Position numbers and translations under genes: made by a program
In this document: positions 2,939-39,342 of the stretch, one piece after another
How positions within the stretch are numbered: the stretch's first letter is position 1
Layout: every line of letters starts with the position of its first letter
Sequence record: OL362275.1
Length of the DNA stretch: 39,342 bases
Strand: one strand, 5' to 3'
From: Escherichia phage HC12
The notes under the pieces: model-generated
Told to the model about the DNA's origin: nothing
The model's database searches: none
What the model saw: only the letters and a program-made list of their open reading frames with translations

Positions 2939-5620
2939 ATGAGCGTCATCTCTATTGACAAGCACGACTTCTCTGATGTGTCGAACGCCATTGAGCCGTT
3001 TAACCTACTGGCTGACCACTACGGGCAAGACCTTGCAGTCAAACAGCTTCAGCTTGAGCACGAGGCATACACTGAAGGCGAGCGACGTTTCATCAAGAAC
3101 CTTGAGAGACAGACTGAGCGAGGGGAACTGGCAGACAATCAGGTCGCCAAGCCTTTGATGCAGACTCTGGTCCCTAAGATTGCGCAAGCCGTCATGGAGT
3201 GGCACGAAGGCCTAGACGGGAAGCTGTCAACCTCGCGTCCTAGTGTAGCGTTCACCATGTTGAGCACTGAAGAGAAGGCCGTAAAGGACCGCTCTATGCG
3301 CATCTCCTGTGAGTCCGCTGCGGTTATCATACTGAAGGTCATACTCTCCAAGCTGGTCAAGCCTGAAGGGATACCGATTACACCGATGGCCTCCGCGATA
3401 GGTCGCACACTTGAGGACGAAATCCGCTTCGGTCGCATCCGTGACAAGGAGAAAGAGCACTTCAAGAAGGCGATAGCTGATAACCTGAATAAGCGGACCG
3501 GGGCGTCATACAAGAAAGCCTACATGCAAGCGGTCGAGGCGTCCATGCTGGAGCAAGGCCAACTGGAAGATGCGTGGGGGACTTGGAGTCCTACAGAGGC
3601 TGTCCACGTTGGCATCAAGATGCTCGAGATTGTCATCCAGTCAACACAACTGGTCGAGCTTAAGCGGTACGGTGCTGGCAATGCAGCGGCTGATGTAGAG
3701 ATGGTCCACCTGTCAGACTTCTGGGTCAAGAAGATGGCACAACGAGGATTCAGCCTTGCGGGTATAGCTCCAGTCTACCAGCCTTGCGTCGTTCCACCTA
3801 AGCCGTGGACTGGTGTCGTAGGCGGTGGGTACTGGGCCAAAGGACGCAGACCATTACCACTGATTCGCTTAGGGTCTAAGTCTGCGGTAGCACGCTACGA
3901 AGACGTGTATATGCCTGAAGTCTATGACGCTGTGAACATCATTCAGAATACACCTTGGAAAGTGAACAAGAAGGTTCTGGAAGTGGTGAACATGGTCGAG
4001 AAGCTGAACAACACGCCTATTGATGACATCCCTCAGATGGAACCGCTGAAGCCTGAGGACTATGCGGGTGAGACTGAAGAAGAACTCAAGGCATGGAAGA
4101 AGGCTGCTGCTGGTATCTATCGCCGCGAGAAGGCCAGACAGTCACGAAGATTATCACTGAGCTTTATCGTTAACCAAGCAAACAAGTTCTCTCAGTTCAA
4201 GGCCATCTGGTTCCCGTACAACATGGATTGGCGAGGTCGTGTCTACGCTGTCCCGATGTTCAACCCTCAGGGTAACGACATGCAGAAGGGCCTCCTGACT
4301 CTGGCAGTCGGCAAGCCTATTGGTGCTGACGGTTTCAAATGGCTGAAGGTCCACGGTGCAAACTGTGCGGGTGTCGATAAAGTCACCTTCGATGAGCGCA
4401 TCAAGTGGGTGGAAGACAACCACGAAAACATCATGGCTGCTGCTAAGGCACCGATGGATAGTATTGAGTGGTGGGGCAAGTTAGACTCTCCGTTCTGTTT
4501 CCTTGCGTTCTGCTTCGAGTATGCTGGCGTAATGCACCACGGCCTGTCTTACTCTTGTTCGCTACCGATAGCGTTCGATGGGTCCTGCTCTGGGATTCAG
4601 CACTTCAGCGCGATGCTTCGTGACCACATCGGTGGACATGCAGTAAACCTGACGCCATCCGGTAAGGTCCAAGACATCTACCGCATCGTGTCTGACAGCA
4701 TTGAGGAGGAGCTTAAAGTCCTGCTGATTAACGGCACTAACAACGAGATGGTCACTCACGAGGATAAGAAAACTGGTGAGATTACCGAACGTATCAAGCT
4801 GGGGACACGAGAGCTGGCCCGTCAGTGGCTGACATACGGTATGTCACGCAAGGTCACTAAGCGTTCAGTCATGACTCTGGCATACGGGTCGAAAGAGTAC
4901 GGCTTCGCAGACCAAGTTTACGAGGACATCGTGATGCCAGCGATTGACTCAGGGTCTGGCGCTATGTTCACTGAACCAAGCCAAGCGTCTCGCTTCATGG
5001 CTAAGATGATTTGGGAAGCTGTGAGTGTGACCGTAGTTGCTGCGGTTGACGCGATGAAATGGCTTCAGGGTGCTGCCAAGCTGCTTGCTGCTGAAGTGAA
5101 GGACAAGAAGACTGGCGAAATCCTGAAGCCATGCCTTCCGGTACACTGGGTAACACCTGATGGTTTCCCTGTCTGGCAGGAATACCGCAAGAAGGATACC
5201 ACTCGTCTGAACCTGATGTTCTTAGGGTCATTCAACATTCAGCCTACCGTCAACAGAGGTACGAAGAAAGAGCTGGACAAGCACAAGCAGGAGTCAGGCA
5301 TTAGCCCTAACTTCGTCCACTCACAAGATGGTAGCCACCTGCGGAAGACTGTAGTCCACACTCACCGCAAGTATGGCGTGATGTCATTCGCAGTGATTCA
5401 CGATAGCTTCGGGACCATACCTGCTGACGCTGAGTATCTGTTCCGTGGTGTCCGTGAGACGATGGTCGAGACATACCGCGATAACGATGTGCTGCTTGAC
5501 TTCTACGAGCAGTTTGAATACCAGCTTCATGAAAGTCAGCGCGACAAGTTGCCTGAGCTTCCGAAGAAAGGTAAACTGAATATCGAAGACATCTTGTCTT
5601 CAGACTTTGCATTCGCTTAA
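2939..5620 (+). CDS. 1: DNA-directed RNA polymerase, single-subunit T7-type
   Basis: 893 aa, colinear with T7 RNAP. Conserved blocks WFPYNMDWRGRVYAV, FDGSCSGIQHFSAMLRD, HDSFGT and C-terminal DFAFA. Specificity-loop region reads RLNLMFLGSFNIQPT. Confidence 0.97.
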   Translation: MSVISIDKHDFSDVSNAIEPFNLLADHYGQDLAVKQLQLEHEAYTEGERRFIKNLERQTERGELADNQVAKPLMQTLVPKIAQAVMEWHEGLDGKLSTSRPSVAFTMLSTEEKAVKDRSMRISCESAAVIILKVILSKLVKPEGIPITPMASAIGRTLEDEIRFGRIRDKEKEHFKKAIADNLNKRTGASYKKAYMQAVEASMLEQGQLEDAWGTWSPTEAVHVGIKMLEIVIQSTQLVELKRYGAGNAAADVEMVHLSDFWVKKMAQRGFSLAGIAPVYQPCVVPPKPWTGVVGGGYWAKGRRPLPLIRLGSKSAVARYEDVYMPEVYDAVNIIQNTPWKVNKKVLEVVNMVEKLNNTPIDDIPQMEPLKPEDYAGETEEELKAWKKAAAGIYRREKARQSRRLSLSFIVNQANKFSQFKAIWFPYNMDWRGRVYAVPMFNPQGNDMQKGLLTLAVGKPIGADGFKWLKVHGANCAGVDKVTFDERIKWVEDNHENIMAAAKAPMDSIEWWGKLDSPFCFLAFCFEYAGVMHHGLSYSCSLPIAFDGSCSGIQHFSAMLRDHIGGHAVNLTPSGKVQDIYRIVSDSIEEELKVLLINGTNNEMVTHEDKKTGEITERIKLGTRELARQWLTYGMSRKVTKRSVMTLAYGSKEYGFADQVYEDIVMPAIDSGSGAMFTEPSQASRFMAKMIWEAVSVTVVAAVDAMKWLQGAAKLLAAEVKDKKTGEILKPCLPVHWVTPDGFPVWQEYRKKDTTRLNLMFLGSFNIQPTVNRGTKKELDKHKQESGISPNFVHSQDGSHLRKTVVHTHRKYGVMSFAVIHDSFGTIPADAEYLFRGVRETMVETYRDNDVLLDFYEQFEYQLHESQRDKLPELPKKGKLNIEDILSSDFAFA

Positions 5621-6167: not shown

Positions 6168-6190
6168 CCTAAACTATCACTATAGGATTA
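6168..6190 (+). promoter_or_regulatory. Phage RNA polymerase promoter (phi1.1-like)
   Basis: CCTAAACTATCACTATAGGATTA, promoter family member, +1 G at 6185. Confidence 0.7.
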
Positions 6191-6232
6191 GACTCAAGGT
6201 CATGACTCAAAGTCGTGGCCTTCATGATTAAC
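6188..6232 (+). promoter_or_regulatory. RNase III-type processing hairpin (R1.1-like)
   Basis: TTAGACTCAAGGTCATGACTCAAAGTCGTGGCCTTCATGATTAA. Same conserved element recurs at 13046 and 36348, at the positions of T7 sites R1.1, R4.7 and R18.5. Confidence 0.55.
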
Positions 6233-6263
6233 CCTAAATAAACACTACTGGAGATTTAACCGT

Positions 6264-10040: not shown

Positions 10041-10531
10041 TGAGCAAGAAGTTTAAACTGTTAGTAGATGCGCATGGCTGGCCTAGTGGGACTATAGTTA
10101 CCAAGTGTGAGAATGACCCCGTACCAGATTCAAGAATGACCCTAGTTGAGTGCCAGATTCCAGGCGCATACAAACATGGGTCTAACGGCTGCAATACTCA
10201 GCCTGAGGGTATGTGGGGAGCATGGGTCCTTAATTGGAAACTTGAGGAAATCAAGCCGGAAGAGAAACTCACTGGTGTCCAAACCACTCAAGTCCTGCCA
10301 GCTTCGAGCGTACCGCCTGTGACTTTGAAGCGTGAAGTCCTGACCATCGACAAGATTGGTGTAGGCCAGACGTTCATCGTCCATGGAAAGCCTGAAGAAG
10401 TTTACGTGAAGATTAGCAACTCACACGTCTTCAACCATAAGCATCTCCAGATGCACACCACGGACGCACAACGCTTCACCCAGCACCTGAATCTGGTTGT
10501 CGTAGAATTGGTGGTGTACAATGGTAAGTAA
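10040..10531 (+). CDS. Hypothetical protein inserted between endonuclease I and lysozyme
   Basis: 163-aa ORF; ATG overlaps the gene 3 stop (TGATG). No counterpart at this position in T7. No motif recognised. Confidence 0.65.
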   Translation: MSKKFKLLVDAHGWPSGTIVTKCENDPVPDSRMTLVECQIPGAYKHGSNGCNTQPEGMWGAWVLNWKLEEIKPEEKLTGVQTTQVLPASSVPPVTLKREVLTIDKIGVGQTFIVHGKPEEVYVKISNSHVFNHKHLQMHTTDAQRFTQHLNLVVVELVVYNGK

Positions 10532-10979
10532 GGTACAGTTCAATCCACGGTCCCGGACCGACGCTATCTTCGTACACTGTTCGGCTACCAAGCCAGAGAT
10601 GGACATCGGGGTAGAGACCATCCGTATGTGGCACAAGCAGCAAGGCTGGCTGGACGTAGGCTACCACTTTATCATCAAGCGCGATGGCACTGTGGAAGAG
10701 GGACGCCCGGTCAATGTCGTAGGGTCACACGTTAAGGACTGGAACTCACGGTCTGTAGGCGTCTGCCTTGTAGGTGGAATTGACGCTAAGGGCAAGTTTG
10801 AAGCTAACTTCACTCCGGCCCAGATGAACTCCCTGCGCAACAAGCTGGCTGACCTGAAGGACTTGTATCCTCAGGCAGAAATCAAATCACATCATGACGT
10901 AGCACCAAAGGCGTGTCCAAGTTTCGACTTGCAACGCTGGCTGTCTACCAATGAACTGGTCACTTCCGACCGAGGCTAA
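10521..10979 (+). CDS. 3.5: N-acetylmuramoyl-L-alanine amidase (T7 lysozyme)
   Basis: 152 aa, near-colinear with T7 gp3.5: TDAIFVHCSATKP, GWLDVGYHFIIKRDGTVE, HHDVAPKACPSFDL, C-terminal ELVTSDRG. Confidence 0.95.
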   Translation: MVSKVQFNPRSRTDAIFVHCSATKPEMDIGVETIRMWHKQQGWLDVGYHFIIKRDGTVEEGRPVNVVGSHVKDWNSRSVGVCLVGGIDAKGKFEANFTPAQMNSLRNKLADLKDLYPQAEIKSHHDVAPKACPSFDLQRWLSTNELVTSDRG

Positions 10980-11042: not shown

Positions 11043-11121
11043 GTCTCCATAGCTCAAACGGTAGAGCGGCGGGTCGTGATGGCCTATTGCGATTAGGGTT
11101 CGAATCCCCGTGGAGACGCCA
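11043..11121 (+). tRNA. tRNA-like element (canonical acceptor, D and T arms, encoded CCA; anticodon arm non-canonical)
   Basis: GTCTCCA...TGGAGAC perfect 7-bp acceptor stem. D arm GCTC-AAACGGTA-GAGC with G18G19. T arm with GGTTCGAATCC. Discriminator G then CCA. The 26 nt between the D and T arms do not form a clean 5-bp anticodon stem; best fold gives loop GTCGTGA (anticodon CGU, Thr) with an imperfect stem. Confidence 0.45.
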
Positions 11122-11132
11122 CTAAGGAGTGA

Positions 11133-12836
<1,704 letters not shown>

Positions 12837-12878: not shown

Positions 12879-13043
12879 GTGTTAAAGAAACTTAAAGCTC
12901 GCTACCATCGGTTCATGTACAAATGGTGGAGCGACGAAGCAACCTGCCTGTCGAACATTCTGGGAGACCAGCGGTTCAACTCTGAGGCATGGAAGAAAGC
13001 TAACCGGAAGTTCATGTATCACTTCTTGCGTACAGACTTCTAG
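12879..13043 (+). CDS. Hypothetical small protein (54 aa, GTG start)
   Basis: GGAGGA RBS 6 nt upstream of GTG. Hand translation (M)LKKLKARYHRFMYKWWSDEATCLSNILGDQRFNSEAWKKANRKFMYHFLRTDF. Position of T7 genes 4.3/4.5. Confidence 0.45.
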   Translation: MLKKLKARYHRFMYKWWSDEATCLSNILGDQRFNSEAWKKANRKFMYHFLRTDF

Positions 13044-13045
13044 GT

Positions 13046-13090
13046 CTAGACTCAAGGTCATTCACATAGAGTGGCCTTTATGATTAGACT
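13046..13090 (+). promoter_or_regulatory. RNase III-type processing hairpin (R4.7-like)
   Basis: CTAGACTCAAGGTCATTCACATAGAGTGGCCTTTATGATTAGAC, second copy of the conserved element, upstream of the DNA polymerase gene. Confidence 0.55.
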
Positions 13091-13106
13091 AAACGGAGGA
13101 TTAACC

Positions 13107-17006: not shown

Positions 17007-17080
17007 TTTACTGGGCCGGACTTCTGGCCCTTTACTGCATGTACAAGTGGTTCGGGTCAAACAACCGTCCTAAACACTGA
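17003..17080 (+). CDS. Hypothetical small hydrophobic peptide (25 aa, GTG start overlapping the gene 6 stop)
   Basis: Hand translation (M)IYWAGLLALYCMYKWFGSNNRPKH. Speculative. Confidence 0.2.
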   Translation: MIYWAGLLALYCMYKWFGSNNRPKH

Positions 17081-17132
17081 GTCTAACCGATAGTCATATC
17101 CTATCAATCCAACAGTCATCCATAGGTGAAAC

Positions 17133-17155
17133 ACTAAACTATCACTATAGGGACT
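17133..17155 (+). promoter_or_regulatory. Phage RNA polymerase promoter (phi6.5-like)
   Basis: CACTAAACTATCACTATAGGGAC, +1 G at 17150. Confidence 0.7.
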
Positions 17156-17216
17156 TTATGACCTAAGATATGACTATAAGATATACTTTAGTCTTAACTT
17201 AAAGAGGAGATTCAAG

Positions 17217-18407: not shown

Positions 18408-19976
18408 ATGGCTGAACGTGAAGGGTTCGCTGCTGAAGGAGCCAAAGCGGTCTATGACCGACTTAAGAACGGTAGACAGCCATATGAGACACGCGCTCAG
18501 AACTGTGCTGCTGTCACTATCCCGTCACTGTTTCCTAAGGAGTCCGACAACTCGTCTACTGAGTACACAACTCCGTGGCAAGCTGTGGGTGCTCGCTGCT
18601 TGAACAACTTGGCTGCAAAGCTGATGTTGGCATTATTCCCTCAGTCACCGTGGATGCGACTAACAGTCTCAGAATATGAGGCCAAGACCTTGAGTCAGGA
18701 CTCAGAGGCAGCTGCTCGTGTTGACGAAGGGCTGGCTATGGTCGAGCGTGTGTTGATGGCCTACATGGAGACCAACAGTTTCCGTGTGCCATTGTTCGAA
18801 GCTCTGAAGCAGCTTATCGTCTCCGGTAACTGTCTGCTTTACATTCCAGAGCCTGAACAGGGTACTTACAGTCCTATGCGAATGTACCGCTTAGTGTCCT
18901 ACGTTGTTCAACGTGATGCTTTCGGTAATATCTTGCAGATTGTAACTCTCGACAAGGTAGCGTTTAGTGCTCTACCGGAAGACGTTAAGTCACAGCTCAA
19001 CGCAGACGACTATGAGCCTGACACAGAGCTGGAAGTATATACGCACATCTACCGTCAAGACGACGAGTATCTACGTTATGAGGAAGTGGAAGGCATTGAG
19101 GTAGCAGGGACCGATGGTTCATACCCACTGACTGCATGTCCATACATCCCGGTACGAATGGTTCGACTGGATGGTGAAGACTATGGTCGTTCTTACTGCG
19201 AGGAGTATCTGGGTGACCTGAACTCGCTGGAGACGATTACAGAAGCTATCACCAAAATGGCTAAGGTAGCCTCCAAGGTGGTGGGCCTCGTTAACCCGAA
19301 CGGTATCACGCAACCTCGTCGTCTGAACAAGGCGGCTACAGGTGAGTTCGTTGCCGGTCGCGTTGAGGACATCAACTTCCTGCAACTGACTAAGGGTCAG
19401 GACTTTACGATTGCCAAGTCGGTGGCTGATGCTATCGAGCAACGTTTAGGCTGGGCCTTCCTTCTTAATAGTGCTGTTCAGCGCAACGCCGAGCGAGTCA
19501 CTGCTGAAGAGATTCGTTATGTTGCTGGCGAACTGGAGGCGACCTTAGGTGGCGTGTACTCAGTACAATCCCAAGAGCTTCAGTTACCTATCGTCCGTGT
19601 GCTGATGAACCAACTTCAGTCTGCTGGCATGATTCCTGACCTTCCGAAAGAAGCGGTAGAGCCTACTGTCTCAACTGGTCTGGAAGCTCTGGGCCGTGGT
19701 CAGGACTTGGAGAAGCTGACTCAGGCGGTTAACATGATGACTGGTCTTCAGCCGCTATCTCAGGACCCGGACATCAATTTGCCGACCCTTAAGCTGCGAC
19801 TCCTGAACGCTCTGGGTATCGACACCGCTGGCCTACTCCTGACGCAAGACGAGAAGATTCAGCGCATGGCTGAGCAGTCGTCACAACAGGCAGTTGTCCA
19901 AGGTGCTAGTGCTGCTGGTGCTAACATGGGTGCTGCTGTAGGTCAGGGAGCTGGTGAGGACATGGCTCAGGCTTAA
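18408..19976 (+). CDS. 8: Head-to-tail connector (portal) protein
   Basis: 522 aa, colinear with T7 gp8: YETRAQNCA, TPWQAVGAR, YRLVSYVVQRDAFGN, RMVRLDGEDYGRSY, VTAEEIRYVAGELE. Confidence 0.97.
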   Translation: MAEREGFAAEGAKAVYDRLKNGRQPYETRAQNCAAVTIPSLFPKESDNSSTEYTTPWQAVGARCLNNLAAKLMLALFPQSPWMRLTVSEYEAKTLSQDSEAAARVDEGLAMVERVLMAYMETNSFRVPLFEALKQLIVSGNCLLYIPEPEQGTYSPMRMYRLVSYVVQRDAFGNILQIVTLDKVAFSALPEDVKSQLNADDYEPDTELEVYTHIYRQDDEYLRYEEVEGIEVAGTDGSYPLTACPYIPVRMVRLDGEDYGRSYCEEYLGDLNSLETITEAITKMAKVASKVVGLVNPNGITQPRRLNKAATGEFVAGRVEDINFLQLTKGQDFTIAKSVADAIEQRLGWAFLLNSAVQRNAERVTAEEIRYVAGELEATLGGVYSVQSQELQLPIVRVLMNQLQSAGMIPDLPKEAVEPTVSTGLEALGRGQDLEKLTQAVNMMTGLQPLSQDPDINLPTLKLRLLNALGIDTAGLLLTQDEKIQRMAEQSSQQAVVQGASAAGANMGAAVGQGAGEDMAQA

Positions 19977-19993
19977 CTATCACTATAGGAACA
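19971..19993 (+). promoter_or_regulatory. Phage RNA polymerase promoter (phi9-like)
   Basis: GCTTAACTATCACTATAGGAACA, overlapping the portal stop. Confidence 0.7.
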
Positions 19994-19995
19994 AC

Positions 19996-20089
19996 TAGAG
20001 CCACTCAAAGTGGGACTTACTGTAGCGCAAACAATGACAGTTGGCATTGATCCTAAGTCATCCTACAGGTCCTACTTTGAGTGGCTCTA
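19996..20089 (+). promoter_or_regulatory. Long inverted repeat forming a roughly 22-bp stem in the gene 9 leader
   Basis: AGAGCCACTCAAAGT at 19997-20011 is the exact reverse complement of ACTTTGAGTGGCTCT at 20074-20088; pairing extends with G-U pairs to about 22 bp around a loop of about 48 nt. Confidence 0.6.
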
Positions 20090-20119
20090 CCTATTAACGA
20101 CTTAAAGGAGAATGACTTA

Positions 20120-21004
20120 ATGTCTCAATCAGTTTATGCCGAGTTCGGCGTTAGCTCTAATGCAATCACTGGTTCCGTTGAGGACCTGAACGAACACCAG
20201 AAGTCTATGCTTGAACAGGACGTAGCTGTTCGTGATGGCGATGACGCTATTACCTTCAAGCAACTGGAAGCCGAAAACGAAGAGGCGACAGAAGAAGACG
20301 AGAACGTCGAAGAGACTGAGGGTGATGAAGACAACGAGTCCGATGACGAAGAGTCTGAGACCGATGGTGAACAACCTGAGTTCGTCGAACTTGGTGATGC
20401 ACCTAAAGAGCTGACCGAAAGTGTCACAGCTCTGGATGAAAACGAAGCTGCATTTGACGACATGGTGTCTTCTGCTGTAGAAGCTGGCAAGGTCACTGCT
20501 GATGAAATTACCGCTATCAAGGCTGAATACGCCAAGGACGGTAAGCTGTCTGACGCATCCTACGCTAAGTTGCAGGAAGCAGGTTACACCAAGCGCTTCG
20601 TAGATTCGTTTGTCCGTGGTCAGGAAGCTCTGGCTGAACAGTATGCCGCTGGTGTGGTTCGCTACGCTGGTGGTGCTGAACAGTTTAATCGCATCCTGTC
20701 ACACCTTGAGTCCAACGACCCGTCAACTCGTGAAGCACTGGAAGCTGCTATCGTTCGTAAGGACATTGCTACTACCAAAGCTCTGCTGAATCTGGCTGGC
20801 AAGACTCTGGGTAAAGCTGTGGGTGTTAAACCTCAGCGTACCATCACCACTCAGGCTAAACCTGTGGTCGCACCTAAGGCTCCTCAGACCGAAGCATTCA
20901 GCTCCAAGGCTGACATGATTAAGGCTATGAGTGACCCGCGATACCTGCGTGACGCTAAATACACGATGGAAGTTCGCGCTAAGGTAGCTGCCTCAAGCCT
21001 GTAG
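20120..21004 (+). CDS. 9: Capsid assembly (scaffolding) protein
   Basis: Acidic protein. N-terminus MSQSVYAEFGVSS...SMLEQDVAVRDGDDAI aligns with T7 gp9. AAGGAG RBS; the track start at 20081 is GTG inside the hairpin. Confidence 0.93.
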   Translation: MSQSVYAEFGVSSNAITGSVEDLNEHQKSMLEQDVAVRDGDDAITFKQLEAENEEATEEDENVEETEGDEDNESDDEESETDGEQPEFVELGDAPKELTESVTALDENEAAFDDMVSSAVEAGKVTADEITAIKAEYAKDGKLSDASYAKLQEAGYTKRFVDSFVRGQEALAEQYAAGVVRYAGGAEQFNRILSHLESNDPSTREALEAAIVRKDIATTKALLNLAGKTLGKAVGVKPQRTITTQAKPVVAPKAPQTEAFSSKADMIKAMSDPRYLRDAKYTMEVRAKVAASSL

Positions 21005-21005
21005 G

Positions 21006-21028
21006 ACTAAACTATCACTATAGGGAGA
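21006..21028 (+). promoter_or_regulatory. Phage RNA polymerase promoter (phi10-like), full consensus ending GGGAGA
   Basis: ACTAAACTATCACTATAGGGAGA, best copy of the family, upstream of the major capsid gene. Confidence 0.8.
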
Positions 21029-36084: not shown

Positions 36085-36344
36085 CGCAGATGGACTTAGA
36101 GAAGTTCCTGTTAATGCTGGACACAGAACGTGCTAGACTAATGCTGCAAGACCTGCGGGATGACTCTAAGCGTTCGCCCCAGCTCTACAACGCCATTGAG
36201 AAACTGCTTGCTCGACACAACTTTGTGTTAAGCAAGGTGTCTGTGGACGAGAAGACGCTGGCGGATATGGAGGCCTTGAACGCAGAGTACGATAAGGTGC
36301 TTTCAGCTACTGAGGATAATGACACCGGGTATGGTGTTCAATAA
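36081..36344 (+). CDS. 18: Terminase small subunit
   Basis: 87 aa; FLLMLDTERARLMLQDLRDDSKRSPQLYNAIEKLLARH aligns with T7 gp18. Confidence 0.9.
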   Translation: MTQMDLEKFLLMLDTERARLMLQDLRDDSKRSPQLYNAIEKLLARHNFVLSKVSVDEKTLADMEALNAEYDKVLSATEDNDTGYGVQ

Positions 36345-36347
36345 GTG

Positions 36348-36390
36348 TTAGACTCAAGGTCATCGTCAGGTGGCCTTTATGGTTAACACT
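36348..36390 (+). promoter_or_regulatory. RNase III-type processing hairpin (R18.5-like)
   Basis: GTTAGACTCAAGGTCATCGTCAGGTGGCCTTTATGGTTAAC, third copy of the conserved element, at the position of T7 R18.5. Confidence 0.55.
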
Positions 36391-36440
36391 GACTAGTGGA
36401 GGCGACTCTACGTTAAATCTGATAAACCGGGAGGGCAACT

Positions 36441-39136: not shown

Positions 39137-39180
39137 ACCTAAGGTCAGTTCATAGCTGACGCTACTCTACTGACCTTAGC
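39137..39180. repeat. Inverted repeat CTAAGGTCAGT / ACTGACCTTAG (11 bp arms, 19-nt spacer) near the right end
   Basis: Exact reverse-complement arms in the sequence; non-coding right-end region. Confidence 0.5.
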
Positions 39181-39265
39181 TACTGTAGTCAAGGACTTTA
39201 GGTAACACCTTAATAGAAGCTCACTTAGGGTCATCCTACTTATTGGTCTATCCTAGTGTCGCCTG

Positions 39266-39310
39266 ACCTACGGTCCTTGACCTACAGTGGCTGTGGCCTA
39301 CAGTAGTGAC
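39266..39310. repeat. Short direct repeats of CCTACAGT-type units at the right end
   Basis: CCTACGGTCC, GACCTACAGTGG, GGCCTACAGTAGTGAC; same unit family as the left-end array at 209-345. Confidence 0.5.
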
Positions 39311-39342
39311 GATGAGTTTTGGACCAAAAGTTTGAGACCACA

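Follow-up and report, generated by a model that had tools for sequence, protein, structure and literature searches.

The leader of gene 9 in Escherichia phage HC12 (OL362275.1) holds a long inverted repeat, placed between a phage promoter and the start codon of the scaffolding gene, and the question that this locus raises is whether the repeat acts as RNA and what it would do to the transcripts that carry it. The window analysed here is the whole stretch of 39,342 nucleotides of that record. It is a Kayfunavirus (K1F-like, T7 group), and the region of the repeat matches 221 phage records, nearly all of them Kayfunavirus, the top match being Escherichia phage 6925 (98.4%).

The hairpin in the gene 9 leader

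The features of the region are the following.

18408-19976: gene 8 (portal/connector), whose stop TAA (19974-19976) lies inside the phi9-type promoter
19971..19993, + strand: phi9-type phage RNA polymerase promoter (-17 to +6), with a match to the consensus CTATCACTATAGGAA at 19977-91
19990..19995, + strand: AACAAC, which together with GG 19988-89 is an unpaired 5' tail in phi9-initiated RNA and an asymmetric bulge in read-through RNA
19996..20016, + strand: 5' arm of the 21-bp stem, TAGAGCCACTCAAAGTGGGAC, seen as inverted repeat and in the fold
20006-20010, + strand: box CAAAG within the 5' arm, resembling the proximal box of RNase III sites
20017..20019, + strand: UUA bulge of 3 nt between the 21-bp base and the upper stem
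20020..20068, + strand: apical domain of the fold, with upper helix segments and a variable tip (20039-20056)
20069..20089, + strand: 3' arm of the 21-bp stem, GTCCTACTTTGAGTGGCTCTA, seen as inverted repeat; its U20076 covaries with A20009
20090..20119, + strand: conserved unstructured leader CCUAUUAACGACUUAAAGGAGAAUGACUUA, from the alignments and the leader list, common to almost all cassette types
20107-20110, + strand: Shine-Dalgarno sequence GGAG of gene 9, within the conserved leader
20120..21004, + strand: gene 9, capsid assembly (scaffolding) protein of 294 aa, an ORF from ATG 20120 identified by homologue annotation

The promoter consensus CTATCACTATAGGAA was found at 11 sites in the window against 0.9 expected, and in phage ASO2B the equivalent of the 19977-91 site is annotated as a K1F-type promoter. 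By analogy with T7, +1 of the phi9-type promoter would be G19988 and the stem would then begin at +9. It is preceded by 8 unpaired nucleotides (+1 to +8, GGAACAAC), and the pairing probability of nucleotides +1 to +6 was 0.05.

Between the arms 19996-20016 and 20069-20089, which stand 52 nt apart, there are 21 contiguous pairs, of which G20012.U20073 is a wobble; 16 nt make up the exact Watson-Crick core, and the central pair of the stem is C20006:G20079, with 10 bp on either side. Above the UUA bulge the fold pairs CUGUAG with CUACAG (20020-25 with 20063-68) and G20027 with C20062, and then AUGAC with GUCAU (20034-38 with 20057-61). The whole hairpin has about 32 bp with one interruption, that is, the 21-bp base, the 3-nt bulge and 12 further pairs. 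An earlier note on this DNA had put the stem directly after a phi9-type promoter, which is borne out by the promoter match at 19977-91 and the start of the stem at 19996. The exact 15-mer complement that it gave (19997-20011 with 20074-20088) is correct and lies within the 16-nt core, its pairing of about 22 bp comes to 21 contiguous pairs with one G.U, and its distance of 30 nt between the end of the 3' arm and the gene 9 start is exact, with the ATG at 20120.

The RNA folds at -51.6 kcal/mol, compared with -27.6 +/- 3.6 in dinucleotide shuffles (z = -6.7), and 0 of 200 shuffles equalled it. The segment 19996-20089 is the window's sole inverted repeat of at least 20 nt with at least 95% complementarity within 150 nt. 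Its 16-nt exact core is also the longest in the window; first-order Markov simulations (n = 200) gave a maximum of 15, once, and never 16. The stem persists when it is folded in a 321-nt read-through context, and according to the fold prediction it leaves the ribosome-binding region of gene 9, which is conserved in sequence, unpaired. A search of Rfam at the gathering score gave no match to the hairpin; at E <= 10 there were only generic long-hairpin models (microRNA precursors, HIV pol-1 stem loop), with 15-30 bits against thresholds of 51-100.

Other features were seen elsewhere in the window. At 5059-5132 there is an inverted repeat with 29-nt arms, 76% complementary, and a 16-nt loop, which is situated upstream of the 6174 promoter and probably falls in a coding region. 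Two nested inverted repeats (20-nt arms, 75%; 16-nt arms, 88%) lie at 39169-39317, near the right genome end and downstream of the last promoter (38751). A tRNA-like gene at 11043-11121 (+ strand) was detected by ARAGORN as tRNA-Thr with anticodon CGU and scored 36.7 bits on the Rfam tRNA model. It occupies the gap that separates an amidase-like ORF at 10521-10979 from the primase/helicase ORF at 11136-12836, and follows closely on a phage promoter at 10981-95 and a 5' hairpin of 10 bp. The 136-nt tRNA-like region is present in 68 kayfunavirus records, some of which annotate tRNA-Thr, one a pseudo-tRNA and many nothing; tRNA genes are unusual in T7-group phages.

Considering that the hairpin is very stable and intergenic, it could serve to terminate or attenuate transcription between genes 8 and 9. 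However, there is no U-run 3' of the stem (CUCUACCUAUUAAC; 3' flank CCUAUUAAC), a terminator scan of 19700-20400 found no terminator-like site, and the hairpin stands downstream of a promoter whose only purpose is the transcription of gene 9. The late terminator of T7 follows gene 10, which also counts against this function, and we regard it as very improbable.

The same segment overlaps a small reading frame:

20010..20105, + strand: spurious small ORF, from GTG 20010 or ATG 20034 to TAA 20103-05, with a very weak gene-caller score

If translated, it would give a small leader peptide, of 23 aa when started at ATG 20034 and of 31 aa when started at GTG 20010, translationally coupled to gene 9. 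The stop TAA 20103-05 adjoins the gene 9 Shine-Dalgarno sequence, two relatives carry the annotation 'hypothetical protein', and four substitutions that separate the window from most relatives are at third codon positions of this frame. Nevertheless, the ATG frame has an in-frame TAG after five codons in the contig locus L039, the GTG frame is broken by a 1-nt insertion in EcL30g, the frame is without a Shine-Dalgarno sequence of its own and both start codons are inside the helix, to which the weakness of the gene-caller score is added. With the frames broken in L039 and EcL30g, a protein-coding ORF was rejected, and a leader peptide is hardly credible.

The pairing was then compared among 11 homologues (9 distinct sequences). 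All 300 of 300 pair cells form standard pairs, and 34 of the 36 pairs are invariant. The pair A20009-U20076 changes to G-C on both sides (4 versus 5 sequences), and G20012.U20073 alternates with G-C among the homologues, a G.U wobble being tolerated in the + strand RNA only. Except for A20009, the 5' arm is invariant in the 9 distinct homologues; sequence variation is found mostly in the apical tip, and the paired apical columns are invariant. In L039 (IMG/VR contig 3300045988_000155) a TAA insertion complementary to the UUA bulge yields a perfect 30-bp helix, which folds at -65.8 kcal/mol (z = -9.6). This conservation pattern fits, thinly, selection for pairing. The covariation consists of one pair, with a score that was reached by 5 of 500 shuffles, and in the tool's trials with related sequences evolved without structural constraint 5-25% of the alignments match the covariation score. 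Templated 'quasipalindrome correction' in DNA palindromes could mimic covariation.

Exchange of cassettes in the slot before gene 9

The 94-nt hairpin cassette was found in 13 of the 221 related GenBank records (12 phages), once in each and always at the same site, and also in 2 IMG/VR contigs. The hosts listed for the carriers are Escherichia, Citrobacter, Enterobacter, Klebsiella, Providencia and one 'Acinetobacter' as deposited. This last record (L005, PV615262.1), deposited as 'Acinetobacter phage', is nearly identical to the E. coli phage PV615263.1 of the same submission, and Acinetobacter is an unexpected host for Kayfunavirus. A metagenome scan with the 15-mer TARGTCATCCTACAG gave no new cassette copies among the matches listed, which were screened for the flanking motifs; the probe is short and chance matches occur. 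On viral contigs the same 15-mer found only the 2 already known copies among 35 chance hits. A dispersed or mobile repeat was ruled out, with a single copy in each genome and no others in the collections covered (phage, IMG/VR and sampled metagenomes).

In K1F and its close relatives the gene 8/gene 9 flanks are 96-99% identical to the window and an unrelated 52-nt segment replaces the 94-nt hairpin; this K1F leader folds no better than shuffles (z = -0.8). Conversely, SH3, RDN8.1, IME278 and EcL30g have a hairpin cassette 90-95% identical to that of the window, with gene 8 3' ends just 75-80% identical. Because cassette identity and flank identity disagree both ways, the hairpin cassette moves between relatives by recombination at conserved flanks. 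The conserved flanks that bound the gene 8-gene 9 spacer are CACTATAGGAACA ... CCTATTAAC.

Among 25 IMG/VR relatives, at least nine unrelated cassette types of 27-105 nt occupy the slot between the phi9-type promoter and gene 9 (loci L017-L040), which is flanked by GGAACA(A/C)C upstream and (A/U)CCUAUUAAC...AAAGGAG downstream. The other kayfunavirus cassettes (the K1F type and at least seven others) share with the hairpin cassette the slot between GGAACAAC and CCUAUUAAC..AAAGGAG and the outer closure; they differ from it in being of unrelated sequence, 25-75 nt shorter and with folds indistinguishable from those of shuffles. Their enclosing stems have 5-10 bp and z values of -0.3 to -2.4, compared with -6 to -9.6 for the hairpin cassette. 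The K1F-type enclosing stem has a compensatory change of its own, ACAAC/GUUGU to ACAGC/GCUGU. The hairpin cassette is dispensable, since most kayfunaviruses, K1F included, do without it.

Taking into account this mosaic and rare distribution (13 of 221 records) and a spacer that tolerates at least nine unrelated sequences, the repeat could be a neutral or selfish DNA palindrome, that is, a recent inverted duplication in a tolerant spacer, spread by recombination, whose pairing is kept by quasipalindrome mutation and not by selection on the RNA. The covarying pair is single, and the L039 copy is a perfect 30-bp inverted repeat, as would be expected of a young duplication. On the other hand, the carriers span at least five host genera and gene 8 flanks as low as 75-80%, and yet the variation is in the tip, with hardly any in the stem columns. 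The occurrence of one copy per genome and none elsewhere does not correspond to a mobile repeat, and the G.U state is compatible with pairing in the + strand RNA. We consider the palindrome unlikely, and a lineage-restricted leader cassette that acts as RNA is the best explanation of the hairpin.

Closing helices and the comparison with T7

When 25 nt of upstream context were included in the fold, another helix appeared below the stem:

19985..19989, + strand: 5' strand AUAGG of an outer 5-bp helix, pairing with CCUAU at 20090-20094

The AUAGG/CCUAU helix stacks directly beneath the 21-bp stem on the 3' side. AUAGG spans -3 to +2, and because three of its bases precede +1 the full helix would form only in read-through transcripts. 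With the same 25 nt of upstream context, nearly all kayfunavirus cassette types are predicted to be closed by AUAGG/CCUAU or by a longer version of it.

The earlier note had described the stem as having no T7 counterpart. Folded from +1, the T7 phi9 leader has a closing helix of 8 bp, GGGAGACC/GGUCUUCC, which with 25 nt of upstream sequence becomes one of 13 bp, CUAUAGGGAGACC/GGUCUUCCUGUAG (T7 locus L016, about 161-173 with 209-221). Like the kayfunavirus closures, the 13-bp T7 helix would be complete only in RNA read through from upstream promoters. The description therefore does not stand for position and topology, and it does for length. On these predicted folds, what is new about the phi9-leader stem is that it is long, not that it exists. 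A leader of the phi10 type, at 21023, has the same promoter-borrowing design, GGGAGACC...GGUUUCCCUAU. Closures that borrow promoter bases suggest that the leader structures of the T7 group are selected in polycistronic, and not only in promoter-initiated, transcripts.

In the T7 phi9 leader the first six bases are paired with a probability of 0.98, above all 200 core shuffles, and the T7 phi9 leader and three other cassette types pair their 5' ends. Sequestration of the 5' end as a general rule of phi9 leaders was dropped, as it was significant in 4 of 11 types only. The hairpin was also compared with the 5'-terminal stabilisers (T7 phi10 and phi9 leaders, E. coli ompA 5' UTR), with which it shares a stem-loop that starts the mRNA and an open ribosome-binding site downstream. 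The T7 phi9 leader, however, pairs its first 8 nt, whereas the stem described here is 2-3 times longer and has an 8-nt single-stranded 5' end. Emory, Bouvet and Belasco reportedly found in 1992 that a stabilising hairpin must be near-terminal. A 5'-terminal stabilising stem-loop of the ompA/T7 phi10 type was set aside as poorly placed, the stem starting at +9 after 8 unpaired nucleotides.

Considering that an enclosing helix occupies this position in the other cassette types and in T7, the hairpin may be an uncleaved structural leader or insulator, an over-long version of the enclosing stem that would fold the variable spacer away, so keeping the ribosome-binding region single-stranded, and may slow mRNA decay. 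Downstream, the ribosome-binding region is conserved and, by prediction, open; the stem falls outside the canonical RNase III sites, and its C-G at position 4 and G-C distal box could weaken RNase III binding or cutting (PMC1540722; PMC3867540). Nevertheless, a perfect helix of 21-30 bp far exceeds what is needed to close a loop, for which the other cassettes manage with 5-10 bp. With 8 unpaired 5' nucleotides (pairing probability 0.05), it would not be expected to stop decay that depends on the 5' end; simple stem-loops reportedly hinder RNase E scanning to a negligible degree (PMC11194081), and regular double-stranded RNA of such length is generally degraded by RNase III (PMC3867540). An uncleaved leader is thus possible, although we find it rather doubtful.

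RNase III sites of the phage and possible processing of the gene 9 leader

A covariance model of the canonical T7-type RNase III sites was made by aligning 7 T7 sites and 3 look-alikes from the window. The model recovers T7 R6.5, which is absent from the training set and has a large apical insertion with a promoter in the apical loop. In the window it detected 7 canonical sites with 33-66 bits:

729-790, 1052-1107, 1782-1835 and 2139-2194, + strand: canonical RNase III sites of the early region
6183-6239, + strand: canonical RNase III site after the promoter at 6174
13041-13095 and 36343-36394, + strand: later canonical RNase III sites

No canonical site was detected by the model between 13095 and 36343. 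Given the 7 canonical sites, the mRNA of this phage is processed by RNase III. In T7, which the earlier note had said to be without an RNase III site before gene 9, the model agrees, with no canonical site near phi9. The SH3 paper makes no mention of RNase III sites or of a leader stem.

The phi9-leader stem shares with the canonical T7-group sites (T7 R0.3, R0.5, R1, R1.1, R1.3, R4.7 and R18.5, and the 7 of the window) the intergenic + strand hairpin, often after a promoter, the 5' motif ACUCAA(A/G)G and a box of the AAGG/CCUU type, and the same host enzyme is plausible for both. In the canonical sites an asymmetric internal loop (ACUC versus UAUGA) separates an upper stem of 10 bp from a lower stem of 9 bp, and there is a single nick; cutting is limited to one strand because ACUC faces UAUGA in the internal loop. 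The phi9-leader stem, in contrast, is a regular 21-bp helix with a 52-nt apical domain, and the 3' consensus GGCCUUUAUGA is absent. Against 19996-20089 and the same element in L006, L020 and L039, the covariance model gave no hit at E <= 10. A canonical T7-type site was rejected for this stem, with no model match and with the loop positions fully Watson-Crick paired as ACUC/GAGU. The 5' half of the canonical motif ACUCAAGGUC ... GUGGCCUUUAUGA is present (ACUCAAAGU in the window, ACUCAAGGU in relatives) and the 3' motif is not; the chance of such a 9-mer match is low, yet the motif also occurs in the leaders at 2866 and 21040, which are not sites.

Just above the centre of the stem, the box CAAAG/CUUUG (CAAGG/CCUUG in most relatives), with ACUC before it, resembles ACUCAAGG of the canonical sites of this phage. 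By the box rules of the enzyme, proximal position 2 should be A-U or U-A, position 4 should be neither G-C nor C-G, and the distal box should be UA/UG; G-C at position 2 is inhibitory and C-G at position 4 is a catalytic antideterminant (PMC1540722). In one register the window has an ideal AAAG proximal box, but the relatives have G-C at position 2. In the canonical register C-G occupies position 4, and both registers have a distal box rich in G-C.

For RNase III from E. coli, the idealised substrate is a 22-bp regular helix of which both strands are cut, and long regular double-stranded RNA is broadly degraded (PMC3867540). The stem has the length of such a two-turn helix (20-22 bp or more), with 21 contiguous pairs, 30 in L039 and about 32 when stacked across the bulge. 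In R1.1[WC], a variant engineered from T7 R1.1 to be fully Watson-Crick paired, cutting takes place at two sites and releases the upper stem-loop (Pertzev and Nicholson 2006, PMC1540722). This RNA is like the phi9-leader stem in that the internal loop is replaced by regular pairs, as with ACUC/GAGU here, and differs from it in being synthetic and short and in having a tetraloop and another distal-box sequence.

Helices that use promoter sequence are present in T7 R6.5 and R13, which like the AUAGG/CCUAU closure are full only in read-through RNA. In R6.5 the whole promoter is in the apical loop, whereas here 5 promoter bases take part and the main stem is wholly downstream of +1. The coordinates of R13 and R6.5 are said to come from Dunn and Studier (1983). 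At 17080-17103 with 17164-17187 the window also has a 24-nt inverted repeat, 79% complementary, with the promoter at 17139-17153 between its arms. This repeat is similar to T7 R6.5, which holds the phi6.5 promoter in the loop of an RNase III helix, and the canonical-site model gives no match to the repeat.

The earlier note had proposed an RNase III substrate or a regulator of transcript stability or of scaffold-gene translation, a view that the present data support in part. Our best explanation, held tentatively, is that RNase III cuts both strands of the phi9-leader stem as a non-canonical substrate, by which the gene 9 mRNA would be trimmed to a conserved leader of about 40 nt. Host RNase III would bind the 21-bp helix, whose length is about that of the idealised two turns, and would cut each strand close to the central pair (about 20005-20008 on one side, 20079-20082 on the other), in the manner of R1.1[WC] and not of the singly nicked canonical sites. 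The gene 9 mRNA would be separated in this way from the gene 8 RNA and the 5' leader and would be left monophosphorylated, with its conserved unstructured leader of about 40 nt, and an apical hairpin of about 75 nt would be released. The predicted spacing is comparable to the median of 58 nt between the cuts of in vivo double-cleavage targets (PMC6212723). The cleavage, the cut positions and any effect on gene 9 expression are what we infer from these data. We favour the substrate because the structure is beyond chance, the pairing is conserved, the cassette keeps 93-95% identity between phages with neighbouring gene 8 3' ends of 75-80%, the geometry is that of two turns, the box is canonical-like and the phage has other sites, and also because RNase III helices adjacent to promoters or embedding them are a known T7 design. 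It is weakened by the lack of a covariance-model match, the mixed box rules, the single covarying pair and the dispensability of the cassette.

The apical hairpin of about 75 nt (roughly 20008-20080) might in addition be released as a discrete, stable and abundant late small RNA with a job of its own, which we regard as highly unlikely. It could serve as a decoy or competitor directed at the host's RNA-sensing defences or at host factors that bind double-stranded RNA, and if this were true the turnover of cassettes would reflect host-driven diversifying selection rather than neutral drift.

The hairpin cassette overturns no current understanding and is a fairly ordinary variant. The broader pattern, in which at least nine unrelated spacers occupy one slot with closures that borrow promoter bases, may be of more use than the stem itself. 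In phage engineering, the slot could apparently serve as a tolerant insertion point, with the hairpin cassette as a natural candidate for an insulator or processing module. If the stem is cleaved as we propose, the T7-group repertoire would gain an RNase III site in the late region ("R9") whose architecture differs in being fully paired and cut on both strands. It would also follow that processing sites can be acquired as exchangeable cassettes, set between a promoter and a ribosome-binding site that both stay fixed.
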